Below are positions 2,757 through 35,989 of a stretch of 41,518 bases of DNA, piece by piece. This stretch comes from a virus. Lineage: Duplodnaviria > Heunggongvirae > Uroviricota > Caudoviricetes. Below the pieces are notes generated by a model. It made no database searches, had not been told where the DNA came from, and was given only the letters and a program-made list of their open reading frames with translations. Both the position numbers and the translations under genes were made by a program. The stretch lies in the IMG/VR virus record IMGVR_UViG_2802429248_000002, one strand, 5' to 3'. The number at the start of each line of letters is the position of its first letter. Positions within the stretch are counted from its first letter, which is position 1.

Positions 2757-3147
2757 CGTCTTTTCTCCCCGGAATTAAATCGCGTGGATTGTCTGAACGG
2801 TGGTAGAGCCATATACCAATACGCACAGCGACAATTGCTGACACGAATGCGCCAGCAGAGAAAACAATCCCTTTTTCAAAAGAGTCCTGCGTGATGGTAG
2901 GGATCAGGCTGGCTATGCCGATAAGAATTGATGCTGCTGGTTTGTAGAAAAGAAGTCCACAGAGAAAGCTAAGCATCGATAAGAGTACGCGACGATGAAT
3001 TGGGTACTCTACCGCAGAGGTAACAAAAATTACCGCACCAGCAAGAGCACCGAGCGCCACCTCTGGCGGAACGCCTACGATAACTGCAGCAAGAGAGCTC
3101 ACACTAAGCCATTGATTTAAAGAATCAGTAGTTAGATGGGCTGACAT
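2743..3147 (-). CDS. Multi-pass membrane protein, putative holin/antiholin or lysis accessory
   Basis: Start taken at internal ATG (MSAHL...); the longer track ORF begins with GTG. 3-4 predicted TM segments; overlaps the start of the downstream holin-like gene. Confidence 0.4.
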   Translation of the reverse strand: MSAHLTTDSLNQWLSVSSLAAVIVGVPPEVALGALAGAVIFVTSAVEYPIHRRVLLSMLSFLCGLLFYKPAASILIGIASLIPTITQDSFEKGIVFSAGAFVSAIVAVRIGIWLYHRSDNPRDLIPGRKDDGNA

Positions 3148-6133: not shown

Positions 6134-6238
6134 GTTAAATCTCCAGATAGTCGCAGCACCCGTTGCGCCGCATATCTGGTTATTCTATTACCTGAAAAAC
6201 CACATATGGATAGAAAGACTGTAAATACGAACAGATAT

Positions 6239-6253: not shown

Positions 6254-6291
6254 TCGCAAAACGTGCTGGATAGCAAACAAATTATTTGATA

Positions 6292-6307
6292 CTGTATAAA
6301 TATACAG
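6292..6307. promoter_or_regulatory. LexA box (SOS box) CTGTATAAATATACAG
   Basis: Perfect CTGT-N8-ACAG with AT-rich spacer, flanked TA..TT (TACTGTATAAATATACAGTT, 6290-6309). Sits 22 bp upstream of ATG 6329 and overlaps a TTGATA -35-like hexamer (6286-6291). Confidence 0.75.
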
Positions 6308-6328
6308 TTATTGCATGGAGAAGATAAG

Positions 6329-6586
6329 ATGCAGCAGTATCACTATCCACTGGAAGACGGATTTACCGAAAGGATTCACACGCCGGGAGGCGTCAGGTCA
6401 CTGGTGGAGGGATCGCACTTGATGAAATTACTCCGGGATCTCGATAAGGATGGATTTAATGTCGATGGCCCACTTGCCGAACTGACTGCACTGATTAACT
6501 ACGTCACCAGCTCACAGATGTCTATGCGGGATCTGCAAACACATCTCGACTATTGTGCCGAACAATTACGAAAACAAACCCGGTAA
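6329..6586 (+). CDS. Small SOS-regulated protein, antirepressor C-terminal-domain-like (Tum/Ant-like candidate)
   Basis: ATG 6329 with GGAG 8 nt upstream; 85 aa. About half its residues match the C-terminal ~80 aa of the Bro-N protein at 7732-8418 (shared LxxDG.DV.G..AELT...........RD.QTH). Confidence 0.6.
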   Translation: MQQYHYPLEDGFTERIHTPGGVRSLVEGSHLMKLLRDLDKDGFNVDGPLAELTALINYVTSSQMSMRDLQTHLDYCAEQLRKQTR

Positions 6587-7357: not shown

Positions 7358-7465
7358 TTACCTTAAAGGTAATATCTTGCTTTCAGGTGATCAAGCGTTA
7401 AACGCAATCAACCAAATACGGTTGATTTTAATGTTTCTTCGCGCTTATCATTACCTTTACGGTAA
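7358..7465. promoter_or_regulatory. Two operator palindromes (TTACCTTAAAGGTAA 7358-7372; TTACCTTTACGGTAA 7451-7465) in the divergent region between 6609-7337 and 7732-8418
   Basis: On the minus strand TTGATC-17 bp-TACCTT precedes the first palindrome, giving a promoter whose -10 is overlapped by the operator. A TTGATT (7422-7427)-17 bp-TTATCA (7445-7450) plus-strand promoter abuts the second palindrome. Confidence 0.5.
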
Positions 7466-7558
7466 ATTTACATAGCACTCCTCTTGTGCCATAGTAATCG
7501 GGCACTGGCAAAATCCAGTGCCGGGATTGGCGTCCCGGATTACTACAGAGGCACATAT

Positions 7559-7578
7559 GCCGCATAAGCGGTTTTTTT
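7559..7578 (+). terminator. Short intrinsic terminator/attenuator-like hairpin in the leader of the Bro-N gene
   Basis: Stem GCCGC (7559-7563), loop ATAA, GCGG, then seven T (7572-7578); preceded by an 8-bp stem hairpin GGCACTGG-CAAAAT-CCAGTGCC (7501-7522). Confidence 0.4.
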
Positions 7579-7731
7579 ATGTGTAAAGCGCACCTATTCT
7601 ATGGTGGGCTGTGTGGGGGCACCGAAAGGTGCGCCGGGTCCTTTGTAGCCGGTTACGCCAACCCTGCACAGTTCACCACCAACCGATTGGCGTCGGTAGT
7701 GGTGATTAACCTAACTACAAAGGTGATCACT

Positions 7732-8418
7732 ATGACTGCTAACGTAACCCCATCTGTTTTTCATTTTGAATCAGAAGCAACCATTCGAGCCATTGTTATT
7801 GATGGAAATCCTTGGTTTGTTGCCAAAGACGTTATTAAAGCTCTTCAACTGACAAACCCCACTATGTCAATAAAATCTCTTGATGATGATGAAAGGGCTA
7901 AATTTAACTTAGGCCGTCAAGGCGAAACCAATATTATCAACGAGTCAGGCCTCTACACACTGATCCTCCGCTGCCGCGATGCGGTGACACCAGGCACTAT
8001 CCCATACCGCTTTCGTAAATGGGTTACAGGTGAGGTTCTTCCTCAGATCCGCCGCACCGGAAGTTACATTAAAAACTCGCTCCCGCAAGAAGAACGCATA
8101 AAGATGGTTGCCGACCAGGTAGCCAACGCCACAGCATCAGCAGTGATGCAGGCAATGAAGATAGAGAACAAAACCTACAGCGCCCCACTAAAGCCCGGCT
8201 ACCGCAGTCTGATTCACTCGCCGTCTGGTGTTCTCGGCCTGACGGAGAACTCACTGCTGATGAATCTGCTGAACCAGTTACAGGACGACGGGCACGACGT
8301 ATCGGGCGCGGCGGCGGAGTTGACCACCATGTTCTGCTACATCGTCGGTGTGAACAAATGCCTGCGTGATATCCAGACGCACGCGGAGTACATCAACGAC
8401 AAAGCAGGGTTCTTCTGA
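7732..8418 (+). CDS. Bro-N domain protein with antirepressor-like C-terminal domain
   Basis: Start taken at MTANVT (ATG 7732, aaaggtga upstream); the longer track ORF begins in a structured leader. N-terminus (FHFESEATIRAIVIDGNPWFVAKDVIKALQLTNP) matches the Bro-N signature; C-terminus is paralogous to the 6329-6586 protein. Confidence 0.7.
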   Translation: MTANVTPSVFHFESEATIRAIVIDGNPWFVAKDVIKALQLTNPTMSIKSLDDDERAKFNLGRQGETNIINESGLYTLILRCRDAVTPGTIPYRFRKWVTGEVLPQIRRTGSYIKNSLPQEERIKMVADQVANATASAVMQAMKIENKTYSAPLKPGYRSLIHSPSGVLGLTENSLLMNLLNQLQDDGHDVSGAAAELTTMFCYIVGVNKCLRDIQTHAEYINDKAGFF

Positions 8419-8460: not shown

Positions 8461-8475
8461 GTGACATGTCACGAC

Positions 8476-11378: not shown

Positions 11379-13181
11379 TTAACCTCTCAAGAAACACGCC
11401 ACAGCGACATCAAACAGGCTGGAATCCTGTATTGCCTGCTCACTTTCCCTGTTCGCTTCATCCAGTACTTCACGCGCGCTGCGCGATTGTGGATTACCAT
11501 CATCATCCAGCACGGTGATTATCATGTCCGGATATTCAAGCAGCGAGTCTTCAGCTATACGCAGATCAATATCTCCTGCCGGATCTGCCATCATTTTTTG
11601 TTCTGTCTGTTGCAATATCTTACCGGGCTCAAAAGGAGCTACTTCGTCTGGCGTCCTGACCTCTGCTGTTTTATAGAATGAAACAGCCTGAGCATTAAGT
11701 TCACTTTCTGCCTGCTGTCTCCGAGCCAGTTCTGCTCGAGCTTCAAAAAACTGACCGCCAGGCTCATGCGGTGCCAACGCGTTACGGGAAAATTCCAGGC
11801 GTTCTTGTGCCTGCCGGATTCGTTGGTCAATATCCCGAAGTCTGGCCTGTTTATCTGATCGAGCACGAGACAAAGCTTTACCGCTACCGGTTGGCTCTTC
11901 TGCAAGAATTTGTGCGCGCTGTTCAGTGAGATTTTCAATAATTCGTTGGCTATTAGCGATTTCAGACTGGTAAACCTGTCTATCGCCACGAGGCAAAAGC
12001 TGCGCAGCCTGTTCTTCAAGCAACCGATTTTCGATAGCGCGCGCCGTTACTCCATCATCTACAGATGACAGAGCCTCATTAACTGCCTGAGACAGCAGAT
12101 TCTTGCGCCCAGGAATTTCACTGAAAGATGCAGACTCAACAATGCTGGCTACGTCTACAGGTCTCCCCTGGCTAACATCAGACATGGCTTTTCGCAGAGC
12201 CTGAATGTGCGAATTACGCGAAAGCACGTTGATCGGCACGCCGGGAGCAATATCAATTTCAGCATGATGAGCGGCATTCGCCGCCAGTGCAGCATCGACA
12301 TCAACTGGTGAAAAATTTGGTGCGCTTGTAGACTCGCCGCGAGAGTTAATAAATCTGCCGACACCACCAAACGCCACCCCAAGAACAGCATCAATAGCAA
12401 TTGCCTGTCGATCCAACACATCATACTGGTTAGCCATTTCGCTATAGCCACCATCACGAAGCGTTTTTGCAGTAAGCCCACGCTGTGCCATACCGAACGC
12501 AATATTTGTACCTGCGGCATAGGCAATATCTGGCGTTGCACGTACTGCTGTTGCTGCGGCGCGTCGCACTGAACTTTCACCCGTCCGCGCAAGCTGAGCC
12601 GCCACACCTTCCGCCAGCGCACCACCAGCACGTAACCCGAGGCTCATAGGGATCAGTGTTCCGGCACCAGCAGTAATACCCTGCACTAATCCCGCTTCCT
12701 GCGCCGCCCTGAAATCAACCCCCTGTGCTGTCAGCCGTTCAAACTCAGAAAAACCCTGTAGCGAAGTTACCGCCGCTGCACCTCCGACCGGACCACCGAG
12801 CGTTGTACCGACAACAGCCTGCCCGCCCATATCGAACAACCCATAAAGAACCTGCCCGGCGGTTCCGGTTGTCGCGGCATCAGGCGTCAGCCGCTTAACC
12901 TGCTGCTCTGCTAGTTTTCTCTGCTCGGCAATGTATGAAACTGAAGTATCATTGAGCGAGGTGTTTTCGTTAATAAACTGAGCAATCGGGGATACGATTT
13001 TATCCATCCCTGCCCATAGCAACTGATCTGGCTTTGCCACCAGCCCGGAGTACAAACCAGACAATGCCGCTCCTACAGCATTGTCGAAAAAACCAACATC
13101 GCTGTTAAAGCCCGCTGGATTTGATGCTGCTTCGTCAAGTTGCTGATTCTGGTTTACTGGATTAAGGCCAAAGTAACTCAT
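11379..13181 (-). CDS. Internal virion protein (Ala/Gly-rich), function unknown
   Basis: 600 aa; Ala/Gly-rich central region; synteny between the gp15-like and gp16-like ORFs. Confidence 0.5.
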   Translation of the reverse strand: MSYFGLNPVNQNQQLDEAASNPAGFNSDVGFFDNAVGAALSGLYSGLVAKPDQLLWAGMDKIVSPIAQFINENTSLNDTSVSYIAEQRKLAEQQVKRLTPDAATTGTAGQVLYGLFDMGGQAVVGTTLGGPVGGAAAVTSLQGFSEFERLTAQGVDFRAAQEAGLVQGITAGAGTLIPMSLGLRAGGALAEGVAAQLARTGESSVRRAAATAVRATPDIAYAAGTNIAFGMAQRGLTAKTLRDGGYSEMANQYDVLDRQAIAIDAVLGVAFGGVGRFINSRGESTSAPNFSPVDVDAALAANAAHHAEIDIAPGVPINVLSRNSHIQALRKAMSDVSQGRPVDVASIVESASFSEIPGRKNLLSQAVNEALSSVDDGVTARAIENRLLEEQAAQLLPRGDRQVYQSEIANSQRIIENLTEQRAQILAEEPTGSGKALSRARSDKQARLRDIDQRIRQAQERLEFSRNALAPHEPGGQFFEARAELARRQQAESELNAQAVSFYKTAEVRTPDEVAPFEPGKILQQTEQKMMADPAGDIDLRIAEDSLLEYPDMIITVLDDDGNPQSRSAREVLDEANRESEQAIQDSSLFDVAVACFLRG

Positions 13182-24884: not shown

Positions 24885-24952
24885 ATCAATGACTCCGTAC
24901 GCAATTAAACTATTACCAATTTAACCACATATGATTTATTTATCGTAGATAG

Positions 24953-25311: not shown

Positions 25312-25388
25312 GTGGCATTAGCTCAGTTGGACAGAGCAACCGCCTTCTAAGCGGTTGGTCGCAGGTTCGAATCCTGCATGCCACGCCA
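25312..25388 (+). tRNA. tRNA-Arg (anticodon UCU), phage-encoded
   Basis: Cloverleaf readable by eye: acceptor GTGGCAT/ATGCCAC, D-arm GCTC-AGTTGGACA-GAGC, anticodon stem ACCGC/GCGGT with loop CTTCTAA, variable TGGTC, T-arm GCAGG-TTCGAAT-CCTGC, discriminator G, encoded CCA. Confidence 0.9.
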
Positions 25389-25473: not shown

Positions 25474-25550
25474 ACAGCAGGACGCCATTGCGATGACTTC
25501 ATGCTGTAAACCAGTACAGCCACGGAAGGCATAACTCATTGCTTCCAGTT

Positions 25551-25576
25551 CGCCCGGTTCGCCGGGCATTTTTTTG
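25551..25576 (+). terminator. Second intrinsic terminator (TTCG tetraloop hairpin plus T7 run)
   Basis: GCCCGG-TTCG-CCGGGC hairpin (25552-25567) followed by seven T. Confidence 0.6.
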
Positions 25577-25591
25577 CTTGATGACCGCAAA

Positions 25592-25606
25592 TTACCTTAA
25601 AGGTAT
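25592..25606. promoter_or_regulatory. Operator palindrome TTACCTTAAAGGTAT overlapping the RBS/-10 region of the cargo gene
   Basis: Ends 4 nt before ATG 25611; a consensus TATAAT hexamer (25604-25609) overlaps its right arm. Confidence 0.45.
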
Positions 25607-25610
25607 AATC

Positions 25611-26429
25611 ATGAAAAACTTCAAGGTAATTAGCATGTTTGAATCGTTTAAAGAGCTGTTTTTATCTACTGCCAATACTGCCGTGAATCGAGCCAAAAAC
25701 CCTGTGCTTGGTGCTTTTGTTATGTCCTGGTGCGCCTTCAACTGGAAATCAATTCTTTATCTATTTTTTAGCAAATCAAACATAATAGATAAAATTTCAT
25801 ATATCTCAGATAACAGCACATGGAAAACTGTTATGTTTTATCCATGCTTATCTGTAATTGCTATCTGCTGCCTATTACCATGGGTAAACAATATCATTAA
25901 CGTATGGCAAGCAAAGCCTCTTGATAATAATGACTCAATCGAAAATCACCTGAAGGCAAGAAAAATCCAGCGTGAAACCAGACTGCAGAGGTTATTGGCT
26001 AAAAAAGATGTTACATACGACAAAGTTAAGACTGGCGCGGAAAAAGACATCCAAGAGATGAAAGAAGAGATTATTCGATCAAAGAATAGTATGGGGGAAT
26101 TGACTGCTGAGTTGAAAGCTAAAGATGACGAATTGAGATCCGCCAGTGCTCAGTTAGCAGCTCTAAATCATTCATTAAAAGAGATATCGGAAACTCTTGG
26201 AAGAATGAATGAGGCATATAAGACCCTCCAAAATGATTTCGACGAATACAAACTCAAATACCCTGAAAAATCTCAAATAAAAAGCCTTGCACTTGGCAAC
26301 GGCCAAACAATTAGCAACTTTTTGGAGCAACACAACTTATCCGGATTAAAATCTGGTAAGCCAAACGTTTTTAATAACTTTGGTGTTCTATCTGGATTAT
26401 CAGGTTTCGAGGATAAAAATAAAGACTAA
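25611..26429 (+). CDS. Membrane protein with C-terminal coiled-coil, function unknown (candidate abortive-infection/exclusion factor)
   Basis: Start taken at MKNFKV (ATG 25611). 272 aa; two hydrophobic helices near the N-terminus, then a long charged heptad-like region (..ELTAELKAKDDELRSASAQLAALNHSLKEISETLGRMNEAYKTLQNDFDEYK..). AT-rich by eye; opposite strand to the flanking terminase and portal genes. Confidence 0.55.
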   Translation: MKNFKVISMFESFKELFLSTANTAVNRAKNPVLGAFVMSWCAFNWKSILYLFFSKSNIIDKISYISDNSTWKTVMFYPCLSVIAICCLLPWVNNIINVWQAKPLDNNDSIENHLKARKIQRETRLQRLLAKKDVTYDKVKTGAEKDIQEMKEEIIRSKNSMGELTAELKAKDDELRSASAQLAALNHSLKEISETLGRMNEAYKTLQNDFDEYKLKYPEKSQIKSLALGNGQTISNFLEQHNLSGLKSGKPNVFNNFGVLSGLSGFEDKNKD

Positions 26430-27901
26430 GCATATGGATCGTACTCGGTAAGCGCCTTGCCTTGCTGGTTCTGCTGCCCGGGAAGTCGCAGGCGCTTTGA
26501 CACCGGGAAAGCAAACGTCAGCAGTAGCGCATCGCCTTTACCAGGCGAACGCCCAAGCCGCTCCTTGATATCTTCCTTCGGTTCGATAACGATTTTACCG
26601 TCCACTCGAACTTTGTACTCTGCCGCCGACAGATCGTCCGCTGTTTCCTGGTCATCCAGCATCCCGCCCAGCCTCAGCCATGTCTTGCATGAGTTGAACA
26701 TCTCCCCACGCTTGTTGAGCATCTGCGGGTCAGTAGACGCGCCACCGAACGGAACAAGTTGCCATGTACGACCCCAGCCGTCACCGATTGACTTCAAACC
26801 GGTTCCGTAACCGAAGTCGATGAACACCGCGTCAGCCTGATACTGGTCTTCAAAGTCAGCGATACGCTTCGCCATAATCAGATCGTCGGTAGTCTTGTTG
26901 CCAGTCCACAGCACCTTACTGTGTAGCCCCTGCCGCAGGTATATCACCGCGTCATCAACGCCTGAATATGCCGGGTCAACACCGATTATCACCGGAGCAT
27001 GCGCCACCTGCGCAGCGGTTACCACCCGTTTCATTGCCTCATCAGTAAGACCGGTAGGGATAAACTGCAATTCAGATGCATCAGGGAATATGCCGCGCAC
27101 ACGGATTTTAACGAAGTCGCTGTCTTCCCCGTAGTCATCAACCCATTTCTGCAACTGCTGTTTGTTAGTGCCTTCCACCGTTCGGCTGTCAATCTGCGCA
27201 GTTTTCCAGCGGTGTTTATATTTGCGGAAACATTCGCGGAAACGTCCGGTGTTACGTGTAGGGTTTCCGAACGCCACCCAGATAATCTCAGTGTCTTCGT
27301 CCGTTAGCGCACCCTCGGCAACTTCCCACACCAGATCCGCAATGTTCGACGCTTCATCAAATACCACGATGATGCGTTTACGCTCGTTGTGTAGTCCGGC
27401 GAATGCCTCAGTGTTGTGCTCAGACCAAGGGATTGCGTCAGCTCGCCACCGCTTGTCGTGCCCAGGATCATTGCTGTACATCGCGGTAGCGGTACAGGTA
27501 AACCAGTCTTTCGTGATAGCAAGGTTCGACCACTTGATAATTTCCGGCCAGGTCTTAGTTCGTAGCTGGTTGTCGGTGTTGGCGGTCACCACGACCTTAC
27601 AATCCTCGCAAGTGGACATGCCCCAGTTGATCAGCATTGAGATGAATGCGGATTTACCAATACCGTGACCAGAAGCGCGTGCCAGCATAAGCGGCTGATA
27701 GCGCGTCTCTGGATTCTGCAGGTGATCACGTATCTCTCGGAACGCATCAGCCTGCCACTGACGTGGGCCGGTGGCATGTGCCAGTTCAGTCCCCTCTTCC
27801 CCCCACGGGAACGCATAGAGGGCATAGCCAAGCGGATCGTGAGTGAACCCTGCAATATCCTCGATCAACTGCTCTTCAGGAGATAACGCTGTATCTGTCA
27901 C
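26426..27901 (-). CDS. Terminase large subunit
   Basis: 491 aa; N-terminal P-loop-like ATPase region (GHGIGKS), acidic nuclease-like C-terminal half; overlaps the small-subunit stop; precedes portal. Confidence 0.8.
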   Translation of the reverse strand: MTDTALSPEEQLIEDIAGFTHDPLGYALYAFPWGEEGTELAHATGPRQWQADAFREIRDHLQNPETRYQPLMLARASGHGIGKSAFISMLINWGMSTCEDCKVVVTANTDNQLRTKTWPEIIKWSNLAITKDWFTCTATAMYSNDPGHDKRWRADAIPWSEHNTEAFAGLHNERKRIIVVFDEASNIADLVWEVAEGALTDEDTEIIWVAFGNPTRNTGRFRECFRKYKHRWKTAQIDSRTVEGTNKQQLQKWVDDYGEDSDFVKIRVRGIFPDASELQFIPTGLTDEAMKRVVTAAQVAHAPVIIGVDPAYSGVDDAVIYLRQGLHSKVLWTGNKTTDDLIMAKRIADFEDQYQADAVFIDFGYGTGLKSIGDGWGRTWQLVPFGGASTDPQMLNKRGEMFNSCKTWLRLGGMLDDQETADDLSAAEYKVRVDGKIVIEPKEDIKERLGRSPGKGDALLLTFAFPVSKRLRLPGQQNQQGKALTEYDPYA

Positions 27902-28530
27902 TGATTACCATCCTGACGTTCTTTGAGTCGCTTCCTGGCTGCTGCTATGCGATCAGCAATTGTCACATTCACATTAACATCCAGACGTTCTTTGAACGCG
28001 TTAACGTCGACGTGCTTACCGATGAGCTCGAGGTTTTTCACCTTGTCGGGCCATTTCACCTTCTTCAGGATATGCTCGACATCCTCAACAGAGAGATCCG
28101 CCTCGCCATTCTCTTTTTGCAGGGAAGCCTGGGTTGTCTTGATGGTAGCGATATCCATAGCACTGAGAGAGGTACGCCAGACCTTCGGCCATTCAGCGAT
28201 CGGCTTCATCCCGCCGTCATCGTTCAGTATATCCAGCACGTCCATCTGGTCGATCTCCACCAGGCGCATGAGAACGTAATCAGCACTGACGCGCATTCGT
28301 TTGTTGCGCTCCTCCATCAACTCGGCAATCCGTTTTTTAATGCGTTCATCGCGCATCATGACACTGGCTTTAACTGCCGCTGTATTTGGGGAGAATCCTG
28401 CGTTAATCGCTGCCTGAGTCTGGTTTTCAGGCGTTTTGATGTATGACTGGCAATAAGCCTCCTGCATTGCTGTTAGTGGCTTAAATTGCGTTGATTTGCG
28501 TTTATAGGTTTTAGGTTCAGCAGGCATCAT
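27898..28530 (-). CDS. Terminase small subunit
   Basis: Start taken at MMPAEP (28530), because the longer track ORF would run through an upstream terminator hairpin. Basic N-terminal region, coupled to the large subunit. Confidence 0.55.
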   Translation of the reverse strand: MMPAEPKTYKRKSTQFKPLTAMQEAYCQSYIKTPENQTQAAINAGFSPNTAAVKASVMMRDERIKKRIAELMEERNKRMRVSADYVLMRLVEIDQMDVLDILNDDGGMKPIAEWPKVWRTSLSAMDIATIKTTQASLQKENGEADLSVEDVEHILKKVKWPDKVKNLELIGKHVDVNAFKERLDVNVNVTIADRIAAARKRLKERQDGNQ

Positions 28531-28572
28531 AACCACCGTGGTAATAGTTACCGTTGTGGTAATAGTACCATG

Positions 28573-28598
28573 CAAAATAAAGCCGCCATAGTTGGCGG
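28573..28598 (-). terminator. Intrinsic terminator-like hairpin upstream of the terminase small-subunit gene
   Basis: GCCGCC-ATAGTT-GGCGGC (28581-28598) with AAAATAAA on the plus strand, so TTTATTTT follows the hairpin on the minus strand. Confidence 0.45.
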
Positions 28599-28648
28599 CA
28601 GTATTCAAAACCCGTCAAATTCATCATGCATAATCTACTCGTGACATG

Positions 28649-28885
28649 TCACACTATTAATTTCGTTTCATGCCAGCCTTTAGTCACCCAGCATTGCGAG
28701 TCACCATTACACGGGCATGAATTAACTGGAACTCTCTCGCCGCACTTACCGCAACGTTTTCTGCTGATCGATTTTATACGCCCGCGCACACGTGCATCAT
28801 CCTGGCGGATCAGCAGCGCGATGTACTCGGCCATTTCATAGGGATCGCGACCAGGGCGCCGGGCGGCGCAGTTCCGCGCCAGCAT
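28649..28885 (-). CDS. Small Cys-rich (zinc-ribbon-like) protein upstream of the terminase operon, possible late-gene regulator
   Basis: Start uncertain: ATG 28885 has AGGAG 8 nt upstream, while the track ORF extends to a GTG at 28996. C-terminus RKRCGKCGERVPVNSCPCNGDSQCW. Confidence 0.35.
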   Translation of the reverse strand: MLARNCAARRPGRDPYEMAEYIALLIRQDDARVRGRIKSISRKRCGKCGERVPVNSCPCNGDSQCWVTKGWHETKLIV

Positions 28886-29101
28886 TTCCTGCTCCTGCTT
28901 ATCCAGCACCAGTTCAATTTTGCGCTCACCGGCGGCGGACTGCCGAGCGCGCTGCGCGGCTTTGCGTTCTGCGGGGGATTTAGCCACGAATCGCACTCCA
29001 CGCCAGATTGATTAATGACTCCCAGGTAATATAAACCCGGATACCAGCAGCCAGGCCGAAACCAATCACCATGGCATAAAGCAGAGCGTTGCACTTGTTC
29101 A

Positions 29102-30904: not shown

Positions 30905-31912
30905 TCATTCACATACACCGGCATAAACACTGCTGCACACCGTCTTATCGTTCGTGCTCGCCAGTAGGTCAAATTGAGCGCCACCTCGGGTTGTCATTGC
31001 CCAGTCGCGATAGGTTTCGATTCCGTAGCTGTCTACGGTAACTACATCTATGCGACGTTCTGCCCGGCGTGGGTCATGAGTTGACGGAAAAAACGTTGAG
31101 TTGCCGTGGCGAGAGCAGGCTGCAACTAATCGTTCCCACTCTGCCACTCTGGCGATTTCCTCTGGCCAGCGCTGAAAAATTTCCGCCAGTTCAGATTTTC
31201 TGGCATGAATGCATGGCATACACCCAACGCGGCCGCATCCTTGTTGGTAGAGTGGGTTGGGTTTAATCCCGTGACGCCTGGCAATAGCGAAAACATCCTC
31301 ATGTAGCCAGTTGAGAATCGGACGATAGACATGCAATCCGGGGGTATTGTCCGCATCCTCCTCCCACACTTGCAGGCGTGCCCTCGATGGCGATTCCTGA
31401 GCACGCACACCCTGCCAGGAGATAACTTCGTCATATTCATCAAGCGCAGGTTGCACCACCTGAGTGCGCACTGGTTCGTGTTTCAGTTCGAATGTACAGA
31501 ACCGCGCTTTAGTACTCGGGAAACGACCTTTCCACATGCACAGGTCAAGAAATGGATTTCCGGTTGGGTGTAGGATTTCCAGCGCACGAGCAACACGTTC
31601 CGCTGCTTCATCAGGCGTCATTCCGCACTCTGCAACAAGAGATACTGGCCATTTTTCAGCAATGAATTTGCGCTTACCTTCTATCTGGCGAGTGAAGTCG
31701 GCTTTTACGCGACGAATTGGGCCCAGCTTTTGTTCCAGGTAGTCAAGGTACTCCATCGTTTGTGGGTGTTCGTGTCCCGTATCAGCAAACACTCGCTCAT
31801 GCTGTATATCGTTTTCTATGGCATACAAACATTGCGCCAGTGAGTCTTTCCCGCCAGACATGGAAACCAAATTAAAAGTGTTTTCTGCTCGGCAGCGCTG
31901 AACGATGCTCAC
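30905..31912 (-). CDS. PAPS reductase-like / PP-loop ATP pyrophosphatase family protein
   Basis: 335 aa; N-terminal PP-loop motif VSMSGGKDS; Cys-rich C-terminal half (CGRVGCMPC). Confidence 0.7.
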   Translation of the reverse strand: MSIVQRCRAENTFNLVSMSGGKDSLAQCLYAIENDIQHERVFADTGHEHPQTMEYLDYLEQKLGPIRRVKADFTRQIEGKRKFIAEKWPVSLVAECGMTPDEAAERVARALEILHPTGNPFLDLCMWKGRFPSTKARFCTFELKHEPVRTQVVQPALDEYDEVISWQGVRAQESPSRARLQVWEEDADNTPGLHVYRPILNWLHEDVFAIARRHGIKPNPLYQQGCGRVGCMPCIHARKSELAEIFQRWPEEIARVAEWERLVAACSRHGNSTFFPSTHDPRRAERRIDVVTVDSYGIETYRDWAMTTRGGAQFDLLASTNDKTVCSSVYAGVCE

Positions 31913-32941: not shown

Positions 32942-33018
32942 TTACCCCTTAGGTAATTAAAAACCACATAAGACACGAAATCAATAGATTTTAGAATATT
33001 TTATTACCTCTAAGGTAA
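32942..33018. promoter_or_regulatory. Pair of operator palindromes (TTACCCCTTAGGTAA 32942-32956; TTACCTCTAAGGTAA 33004-33018) flanking a putative minus-strand promoter
   Basis: Minus-strand TTGATT-17 bp-TTTAAT lies between the two palindromes; the proximal palindrome overlaps the RBS of the VRR-NUC gene. Confidence 0.5.
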
Positions 33019-34869: not shown

Positions 34870-34949
34870 GGTAAGCCATGTTATTAGTATTGGGATTACG
34901 GTTATTTTGTGCTGACACAAAAAAAAGATCAACCACATTTGGTTTTTTA

Positions 34950-35404: not shown

Positions 35405-35989
35405 ATGAAAAGTATCCAGGACGTCCGCAGGCAAAATCTCAACGACTTGATCGACCGTGAATTCAATGGTGTTCAGACGCGGATGGCTGAAAAACTTGGA
35501 ACTCAGGCAAATCTGGTAAACCGCTGGGCTCTTGGCAAGAAGGTTATCGGCGACCAGGTTGCGCGAAAAATTGAAGCTGCCGCCAATAAACCCCGTAACT
35601 GGCTTGATATCGATCGCTCGCTTTCTCAGGAAGGTTTTCAGCCTGTCGGCCCGAGTGATATAGGTCAGCTGGCTGCTCACAACCTGGAACGCTGGATGAG
35701 CGAAAGCCGCGACCTTTCAACGCAGGGAAAACTACACCGCGCATCCGGCGTCGCCCAGGTGACAATCAGCCGCCTGTTAAACAATGAGGTCAGCGTTTCC
35801 ATTTCCACCCTGGAGAATGTTGCATCCGCATTCGGGCGTCATGGCTATGAATTACTGATTCACCCGCACGACCCTGCGACTATCAACTATGACCGCTCGC
35901 GCTACGCATTGTTACCCGAAACCGAGAAAGCAAAGATCGAAAGTTACATTGAATTTGTCATCAACCAGAACGAAAAAAACAAACAATAA
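35405..35989 (+). CDS. XRE-family repressor-like protein with two HTH motifs and no S24 autocleavage domain (putative immunity repressor)
   Basis: 194 aa; HTH 1 GVQTRMAEKLGTQANLVNRW, HTH 2 ASGVAQVTISRLLNNEVSVS; no GDSM/Ser-Lys peptidase signature; flanked by operator clusters on both sides; terminator immediately downstream. Confidence 0.55.
   Translation: MKSIQDVRRQNLNDLIDREFNGVQTRMAEKLGTQANLVNRWALGKKVIGDQVARKIEAAANKPRNWLDIDRSLSQEGFQPVGPSDIGQLAAHNLERWMSESRDLSTQGKLHRASGVAQVTISRLLNNEVSVSISTLENVASAFGRHGYELLIHPHDPATINYDRSRYALLPETEKAKIESYIEFVINQNEKNKQ

Follow-up and report, generated by a model that had tools for sequence, protein, structure and literature searches.

A putative terminator and repressor operators between the early-right and packaging operons of an epsilon15-type prophage

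We analysed a stretch of viral DNA of 41,518 nucleotides (nt) from IMG/VR record IMGVR_UViG_2802429248_000002, referred to at its full length as the window, with a focus on the gap in front of terS, the gene of the small terminase subunit. Judged by its sequence, the window is a temperate podovirus prophage of the epsilon15/phiV10 type, genus Uetakevirus, with 91–99% identity to phages of this type (TL-2011b, phiV10, ZX5 and the O157 typing phages). The lytic genes lie on the minus strand. There the early-right genes (replication, PAPS reductase, Ead/Ea22 and DUF551) are followed by a gene for a protein of 112 or 115 amino acids (aa), a 118-nt gap, terS and terL, and the portal, head and tail genes come after terL. 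The early-right operon and the packaging operon meet in this gap. Two ATG codons stand at the head of terS, and its start was assigned to the second (28527), matching annotated relatives; the first is at 28530. In the minus-strand direction the junction holds a palindrome at the stop codon of the upstream regulator gene, the remnant of an open reading frame (ORF), a hairpin with a T-tract, a promoter-like element and two copies of a direct repeat (Table 1). For comparison, 94 related loci were fetched via the upstream protein, and 50 distinct versions of the gap were compared.

The hairpin GCCGCCA-ACTA-TGGCGGC (minus strand, 28599–28582) was found to have seven base pairs, six of them G–C, and a 4-nt loop, and to be followed by TTTATTTT. 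The U-rich tract TTTATTTTGC (28581–28572) lies directly 3′ of the stem-loop in the minus-strand reading. RNA folding gave −16.4 kcal/mol with z = −4.2, a value that none of 200 shuffles equalled. A GC hairpin with a T-tract, only about 40 bp before the terS start, had already been noted in the initial annotation; the sequence check and the RNA fold bore this out, and the distance from the end of the T-tract to the two ATG codons was measured at 43–46 nt. The hairpin stands 50 nt past the stop codon of the last early gene and has, at the level of sequence, all the features of an intrinsic terminator. Its homologue in epsilon15 (39646–39672, after gp49) is annotated in RefSeq as a rho-independent terminator. 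Furthermore, in other prophages (loci L008–L012 and L077) unrelated terminator hairpins occupy this place behind the regulator gene, and this replacement of the terminator by a non-homologous hairpin in other prophage types argues for function. A terminator followed the upstream gene in nearly all of the 50 distinct gap versions, and there was none in the variants with a umuD-like insertion. A scan of the gap against known RNA families at gathering threshold returned nothing. The permissive scan gave only a match to rseX, at 27 bits against a cutoff of 50 bits, which was rejected because its score was driven by the terminator stem.

Between the T-tract and terS, the direct repeat ACTATTACCAC occurs twice as an exact 11-nt copy (minus-strand 28566–28556 and 28548–28538, 18 nt from start to start). 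The repeat had been recognized from the outset and proved one base longer than first noted; when the 131-nt region was shuffled 5000 times, four of the shuffles contained an exact repeat of at least 11 nt. Each copy ends in TTACC, with GGTAA five bases further on, and the repeat is the left half-site and flank of each of two adjacent palindromes, here called operators A and B. We then described the palindrome as the motif (A)TTACC-N5-GGTAA(T), with a core of 15 bp, and scanned the window allowing at most one mismatch. The scan revealed 15 sites in the window against 0.82 expected, a number reached in none of 100 shuffles. Fourteen of these apparently lie between larger ORFs, and the site at 3009 lies inside an ORF. 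Clusters of sites flank rep, the gene of the prophage repressor, on both sides, further sites precede other transcription units, and one precedes a moron (Table 1). The same motif occurs at syntenic places in epsilon15 and Tyrion, and its TTACC half-site is common to these two phages and all fetched loci. Operator B is kept with one mismatch in epsilon15, Tyrion and most variants. Seven motif sites in the RefSeq entry of epsilon15 (NC_004775) are annotated as protein_bind 'repressor'; among them is the site at 12–27 (ATTACCAAAACGGTAA), which stands directly before terS and is homologous to operator A. No operators are defined in the paper on ZX5. A second conserved motif, CATATGTGGTT, was found on the minus strand at 6198–6208, 24923–24933, 32962–32972 and 34931–34941, that is, 40–50 nt downstream of putative Rep operators and before the tailspike gene, the portal module, a RuvC-like gene and the replication genes. 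Epsilon15 has the motif too, ahead of gp3 and of the lysis cassette.

Comparison of the loci indicated that the gap between the regulator gene and terS is a hot spot of insertion and deletion. Insertions directly after the palindrome consist either of the 68-aa ORF whose remnant is present in the window or of umuD-like genes controlled by a LexA box (loci L002, L004, L007, L066, L075, L076, L090 and others). The block TG.TA.TATTACC.....GTAA was invariant in 21 distinct variants, even in those with a umuD-like gene in place of the terminator and unrelated sequence upstream, and in all 21 it moves with terS regardless of upstream content. The TG of this block is absent from the operator flank at other sites, and it falls at the place of the TG of an extended −10 element if TACTAT is taken as the −10 hexamer. 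In addition, the promoters TTGACA-17-AATTAT (at operator 36108) and TTGATT-17-TTTAAT (at operator 32942) have the same register to their operators as the terS element, in that the −10 ends on the T with which TTACC begins. These two promoters have a good −35 hexamer and no TG; the terS element has the TG and no −35 hexamer. The invariance of the TG block, the position of the TG and the register shared with two −35-bearing promoters together suggest that TGgTACTAT is a −35-less extended −10 promoter of terS–terL that Rep could occlude. Upstream of the hairpin, the only match to a sigma-70 promoter is GTGACA-18-CATGAT; it is not conserved in the insertion variants, and we rejected it because a 186-nt ORF insertion in many relatives breaks its spacing and CATGAT lies within the ORF remnant.

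The presumed ligand of the operators, Rep, and the antirepressor Ant were both matched to the same structural entry (Table 1). PDB 5D50 is the crystal structure of the SPC32H Rep–Ant complex (Kim et al. 2016 PNAS, as cited in PMC9638917), and in PMC9638917 Rep is described as binding palindromic sites as a tetramer, which fits the occurrence of the operators in pairs. A LexA box, TACTGTATAAATATACAGT, precedes ant at 6291–6309, and ant is divergent from the tailspike gene and adjoins the operator at 6238.

Table 1. Positions of the terS junction features, of the operator-like sites and of the genes proposed to act on them (window coordinates; no strand is given for palindromic sites)
Feature	Position	Strand	Basis or remark
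Small terminase subunit gene terS (Terminase_2), first gene of the packaging operon	27898..28527	-	Pfam 6.4e-28; annotation of TL-2011b and epsilon15
Operator B (putative), TTACCACGGTGGTTA	28530..28544		One mismatch; 18 bp from A; covers Shine–Dalgarno sequence and first ATG
Operator A (putative), TTACCACAACGGTAA	28548..28562		Perfect TTACC-N5-GGTAA palindrome over predicted −7 to +8
Putative extended −10 element TGgTACTAT of the terminase operon	28562..28570	-	Predicted; without −35 hexamer
Putative intrinsic terminator at the end of the early-right operon	28573..28599	-	Stem-loop 28599–28582 and T-tract; homologous epsilon15 annotation
Eight codons (MHDEFDGF*) left of a 68-aa ORF that many relatives have intact	28605..28631	-	Comparison of 50 gap variants
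Perfect palindrome GTGACATGTCAC, holding the regulator stop codon	28641..28652		At that stop codon in 90 of 96 loci
Regulator gene (predicted ribbon-helix-helix/zinc-motif product), last of the early-right operon	28649..28996	-	phrog_536 'transcriptional regulator'; homologue of epsilon15 gp49 and N15 gp46
Prophage repressor gene rep, product the presumed operator ligand	35405..35989	+	Homologue of SPC32H Rep, PDB 5D50_A, E = 4e-42
Antirepressor gene ant	6311..6586	+	PDB 5D50_E, E = 1.9e-46
Motif sites between rep and the divergent cro-like gene	35287, 35318 (two mismatches), 35335		
Motif sites just downstream of rep	36047, 36108		Over promoter TTGACA-17-AATTAT
Motif sites before the RuvC-like gene	32942, 33004		Over promoter TTGATT-17-TTTAAT
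Motif sites before the second ant gene	7358, 7451		
Motif site before the portal module	24975		
Motif site before the tailspike/ant pair	6238		
Other motif sites	34950; 25592		

From the features, enrichment, conservation and homology of these sequences we infer termination at the hairpin, promoter activity and a start point just past it, and binding of Rep before terS. Early-right transcription would stop at the terminator, insulating terS, and transcription of terS–terL would begin from TGgTACTAT directly past it. In the lysogen, Rep at operators A and B would shut the terminase promoter and would block any read-through as well, since A would cover the start site and B the ribosome-binding site and the first ATG. 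Upon SOS induction, LexA-controlled Ant would remove Rep and the promoter would be freed. On balance we consider it probable that the repeats are Rep operators over the terS promoter, with the hairpin closing the early operon and packaging under the control of Rep.

Several points weigh against this interpretation. The promoter element was not reported by a scan for two-hexamer promoters, TACTAT matches TATAAT at four of six positions, and the operator flank could account for some of its conservation. The assignment of the motif to Rep draws on GenBank annotation, motif distribution and homology, and Cro or another protein could share the operator sites. Promoter control by Rep only leaves the delay of late expression unexplained by itself, and at other late units the operator lies about 45 nt upstream of CATATGTGGTT.

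We also characterized the protein encoded just upstream of the gap. The initial annotation had placed a zinc-ribbon gene at 28649–28885; the cysteine-rich product was confirmed and the start at 28885 was not, the ORF running from 28996 or 28987 to 28649, as in relatives, and encoding 115 or 112 aa. The GTG at 28987 is the likely start. No Pfam or NCBIfam model matched the protein, and PHROG 536 did; its label 'transcriptional regulator' derives from similarity to N15 gp46, and we know of no test of gp46 function. Among 1.8 billion representatives searched, 149 relatives were identified. An alignment of 55 of them revealed an N-terminal basic helix, a strand-helix-helix core and a CxxC...C...C pattern, and the AlphaFold model reached a predicted local distance difference test score (pLDDT) of 93.7. 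On this model the protein is predicted to combine a ribbon-helix-helix (RHH) fold of the CopG/Arc/MetJ type with a C-terminal cysteine zinc motif. Foldseek found no significant match to the model. When the sequences of the PDB were searched with a profile, TraR and YbiI were the top matches, at an E value of about 0.04. HHalign of the C-terminal 60 residues with a small TraR/YbiI alignment gave a weak alignment over 61 columns at 79% probability; the search for TraR homologues had returned only close copies of TraR, which added little to this profile comparison. None of the 55 members matched PF01258 (zf-dskA_traR), and the fourth cysteine is off the position it has in the TraR/DksA family, which is defined by an N-terminal helix and CxxC-N17-CxxC. 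The zinc finger is possibly TraR-like, and the protein is probably a regulator that binds DNA or RNA polymerase. Homologues precede NinB, RusA and a Q gene in lambdoid nin regions; others adjoin integrases or belong to N15, a phage with its own Q.

The palindrome GTGACATGTCAC, which overlaps the stop codon of the regulator gene and stands 41 nt before the terS hairpin, recurs at the ends of operons, next to terminators. A second copy in the window (8461–8472) lies three bases past the last late gene, and a terminator comes immediately after it. Epsilon15 has three copies, which lie at the ends of gp49, terL and gp18 (in ascending order their positions are 2142, 19517 and 39612), and the N15 version of the stop-codon palindrome is GTGACTGGTCAC, at about 12271–12282. 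In about 50 loci the copy after terL marks the exact border between conserved sequence and highly variable cargo. The matS site is GTGACRNYGTCAC (PMC6907758), which GTGACATGTCAC resembles with a spacer of 2 bp instead of 3 bp; no true matS with the 3-bp spacer is present in the window. We would guess that the RHH protein binds its own palindrome. A bolder idea, that the protein is an uncharacterised hybrid of an RHH domain and a TraR/DksA-like zinc finger for the secondary channel of RNA polymerase, and that it binds GTGAC-N2-GTCAC and modulates termination or read-through at operon junctions, the terS hairpin included, seems to us improbable. If it were true, Rep would govern lysogeny and the RHH/zinc-finger protein the timing of packaging and late expression. 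Any importance beyond the genus could lie only in this widespread protein with the matS-like palindrome at its stop codon, copies of which mark borders next to terminators at which cargo genes are exchanged.

The initial annotation had likened the region to late-operon control of the lambdoid Q type or by a zinc-finger activator. Control of the terminase operon was retained as the role of the region; the mechanism was not, the repeats being apparent operators that also flank rep. A Q-like mechanism is unsupported because the hairpin lies upstream, not downstream, of the only conserved promoter-like element, and because the umuD-like insertions lose the hairpin yet keep the block of operator and −10. 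Neither the Q family (Phage_antitermQ or a Q fold) nor, in Pfam, the Ogr_Delta domain was matched by the regulator protein, and none of the seven TGT-N12-ACA sites in the window falls within 28500–28700; membership in the Q and Ogr families was rejected on these grounds. It is conceivable, if unlikely, that terS–terL is expressed mainly by read-through of the hairpin from the early promoter, enabled by the RHH/zinc-finger protein, or from a late promoter that this protein activates. The gene comes at the end of the early operon, a usual position of late regulators, and its product has a predicted DNA-binding RHH fold and a C-terminal stretch that aligns, at the scores given above, with proteins of the RNA polymerase secondary channel, TraR and YbiI. 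With one copy of GTGACATGTCAC just before the terS terminator and another abutting the terminator that follows the late genes, the protein could be tethered at the palindrome and act on RNA polymerase through its possibly TraR-like zinc finger. However, its homologues reside in lambdoid prophages and in N15, both of which have their own Q, and this coexistence with true Q genes argues against a dedicated role as late antiterminator or activator, while leaving room for some role.

The repeats could also act in RNA, CCAC pairing with the GGUGG of the ribosome-binding site and restraining terS translation, especially on read-through transcripts. Indeed, for the 56-nt leader a fold of −16.9 kcal/mol was obtained in which the Shine–Dalgarno sequence is paired (z = −2.5; 5 of 200 shuffles equalled it). 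Such a fold, however, follows automatically from any two palindromic operators, and the same palindrome occurs at sites with no adjacent start codon (the rep–cro region and 36047). A transcript from the predicted promoter would, moreover, be without the 5′ arm, and the paired bases are invariant, so they carry no covariation signal. We regard this explanation as quite improbable. The least probable reading, to which we give hardly any weight, takes the repeats as a pac- or cosB-like packaging site bound by the small terminase, comparable to the R sites next to lambda Nu1. The repeats do lie immediately upstream of terS and stay with it despite upstream insertions, but a motif that occurs 15 times, including around the repressor and antirepressor genes, looks like part of a transcription regulon, not like a unique start of packaging. 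We found no evidence of genome ends in the gap; deposited relatives start there at several different bases, so these starts look conventional. Because the motif is genome-wide, the packaging-site reading was rejected.

The arrangement favoured here, a terminator followed by repressor operators, is already annotated in epsilon15, the reference phage of the genus, and it is an ordinary layout and not a Q-like switch. Epsilon15 has the same order of gp49, GTGACATGTCAC, the hairpin GGCCGCCGACTATGGCGGC with its T-tract (the annotated terminator), GCGTGTTACTATTACCAAAACGGTAATTATTACTTCGGTGG and terS. The window differs in having the 27-nt ORF remnant between palindrome and hairpin, small base changes in the operator spacers, and a Rep that is a diverged homologue. 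With the Rep/Ant switch of SPC32H it shares clear homologues of both proteins and the LexA box before ant. In phage P1, one immunity repressor, C1, has operators scattered over many transcription units and not a single OL/OR switch, and the window likewise has putative operators for one repressor dispersed across the genome. The P1 operators are asymmetric 17-mers, and C1 controls the late genes indirectly via the activator Lpa, whereas the operator of the window is symmetric and lies on the putative promoter of the packaging operon itself. The Q/pR′/tR′ region of lambda has in common with the window that the early operon ends in a regulator gene, behind which come a terminator and the late genes. 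In contrast to lambda, the terminator of the window precedes the conserved promoter element, the hairpin is not preceded by a conserved promoter that has a Q-binding element, and no Q-family protein is present.

For annotation, these results mean that the gap should be labelled as a terminator, repressor operators and a putative terS promoter rather than as a late switch of the Q type. On this evidence, the immunity repressor of Uetakevirus prophages would sit directly on the promoter of the packaging operon and before other late units, and a lysogen could therefore keep its late genes silent without a late activator having to be absent.

Some further observations concern other parts of the window. 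A second antirepressor gene, of the Bro/Ant type, lies at 7579–8418 (plus strand), with operators at 7358 and 7451, and the phage seems to have two antirepressor systems. At the start of this gene (7502–7683, plus strand) Rfam models of isrK (76.8 bits) and of the C4 antisense RNA (79.5 bits) were matched. A PAPS-reductase-domain protein (30905–31912, minus strand) is encoded in the early-right operon, as in Tyrion; it resembles DndC at a weak score and may function in DNA modification. Between terL and the portal module, on the opposite strand, we found a tRNA-Arg(TCT) (25312–25388, plus strand) and an ORF for a coiled-coil/membrane-like protein of 296 aa (25539–26429, plus strand), whose ribosome-binding site is overlapped by the one-mismatch operator at 25592.
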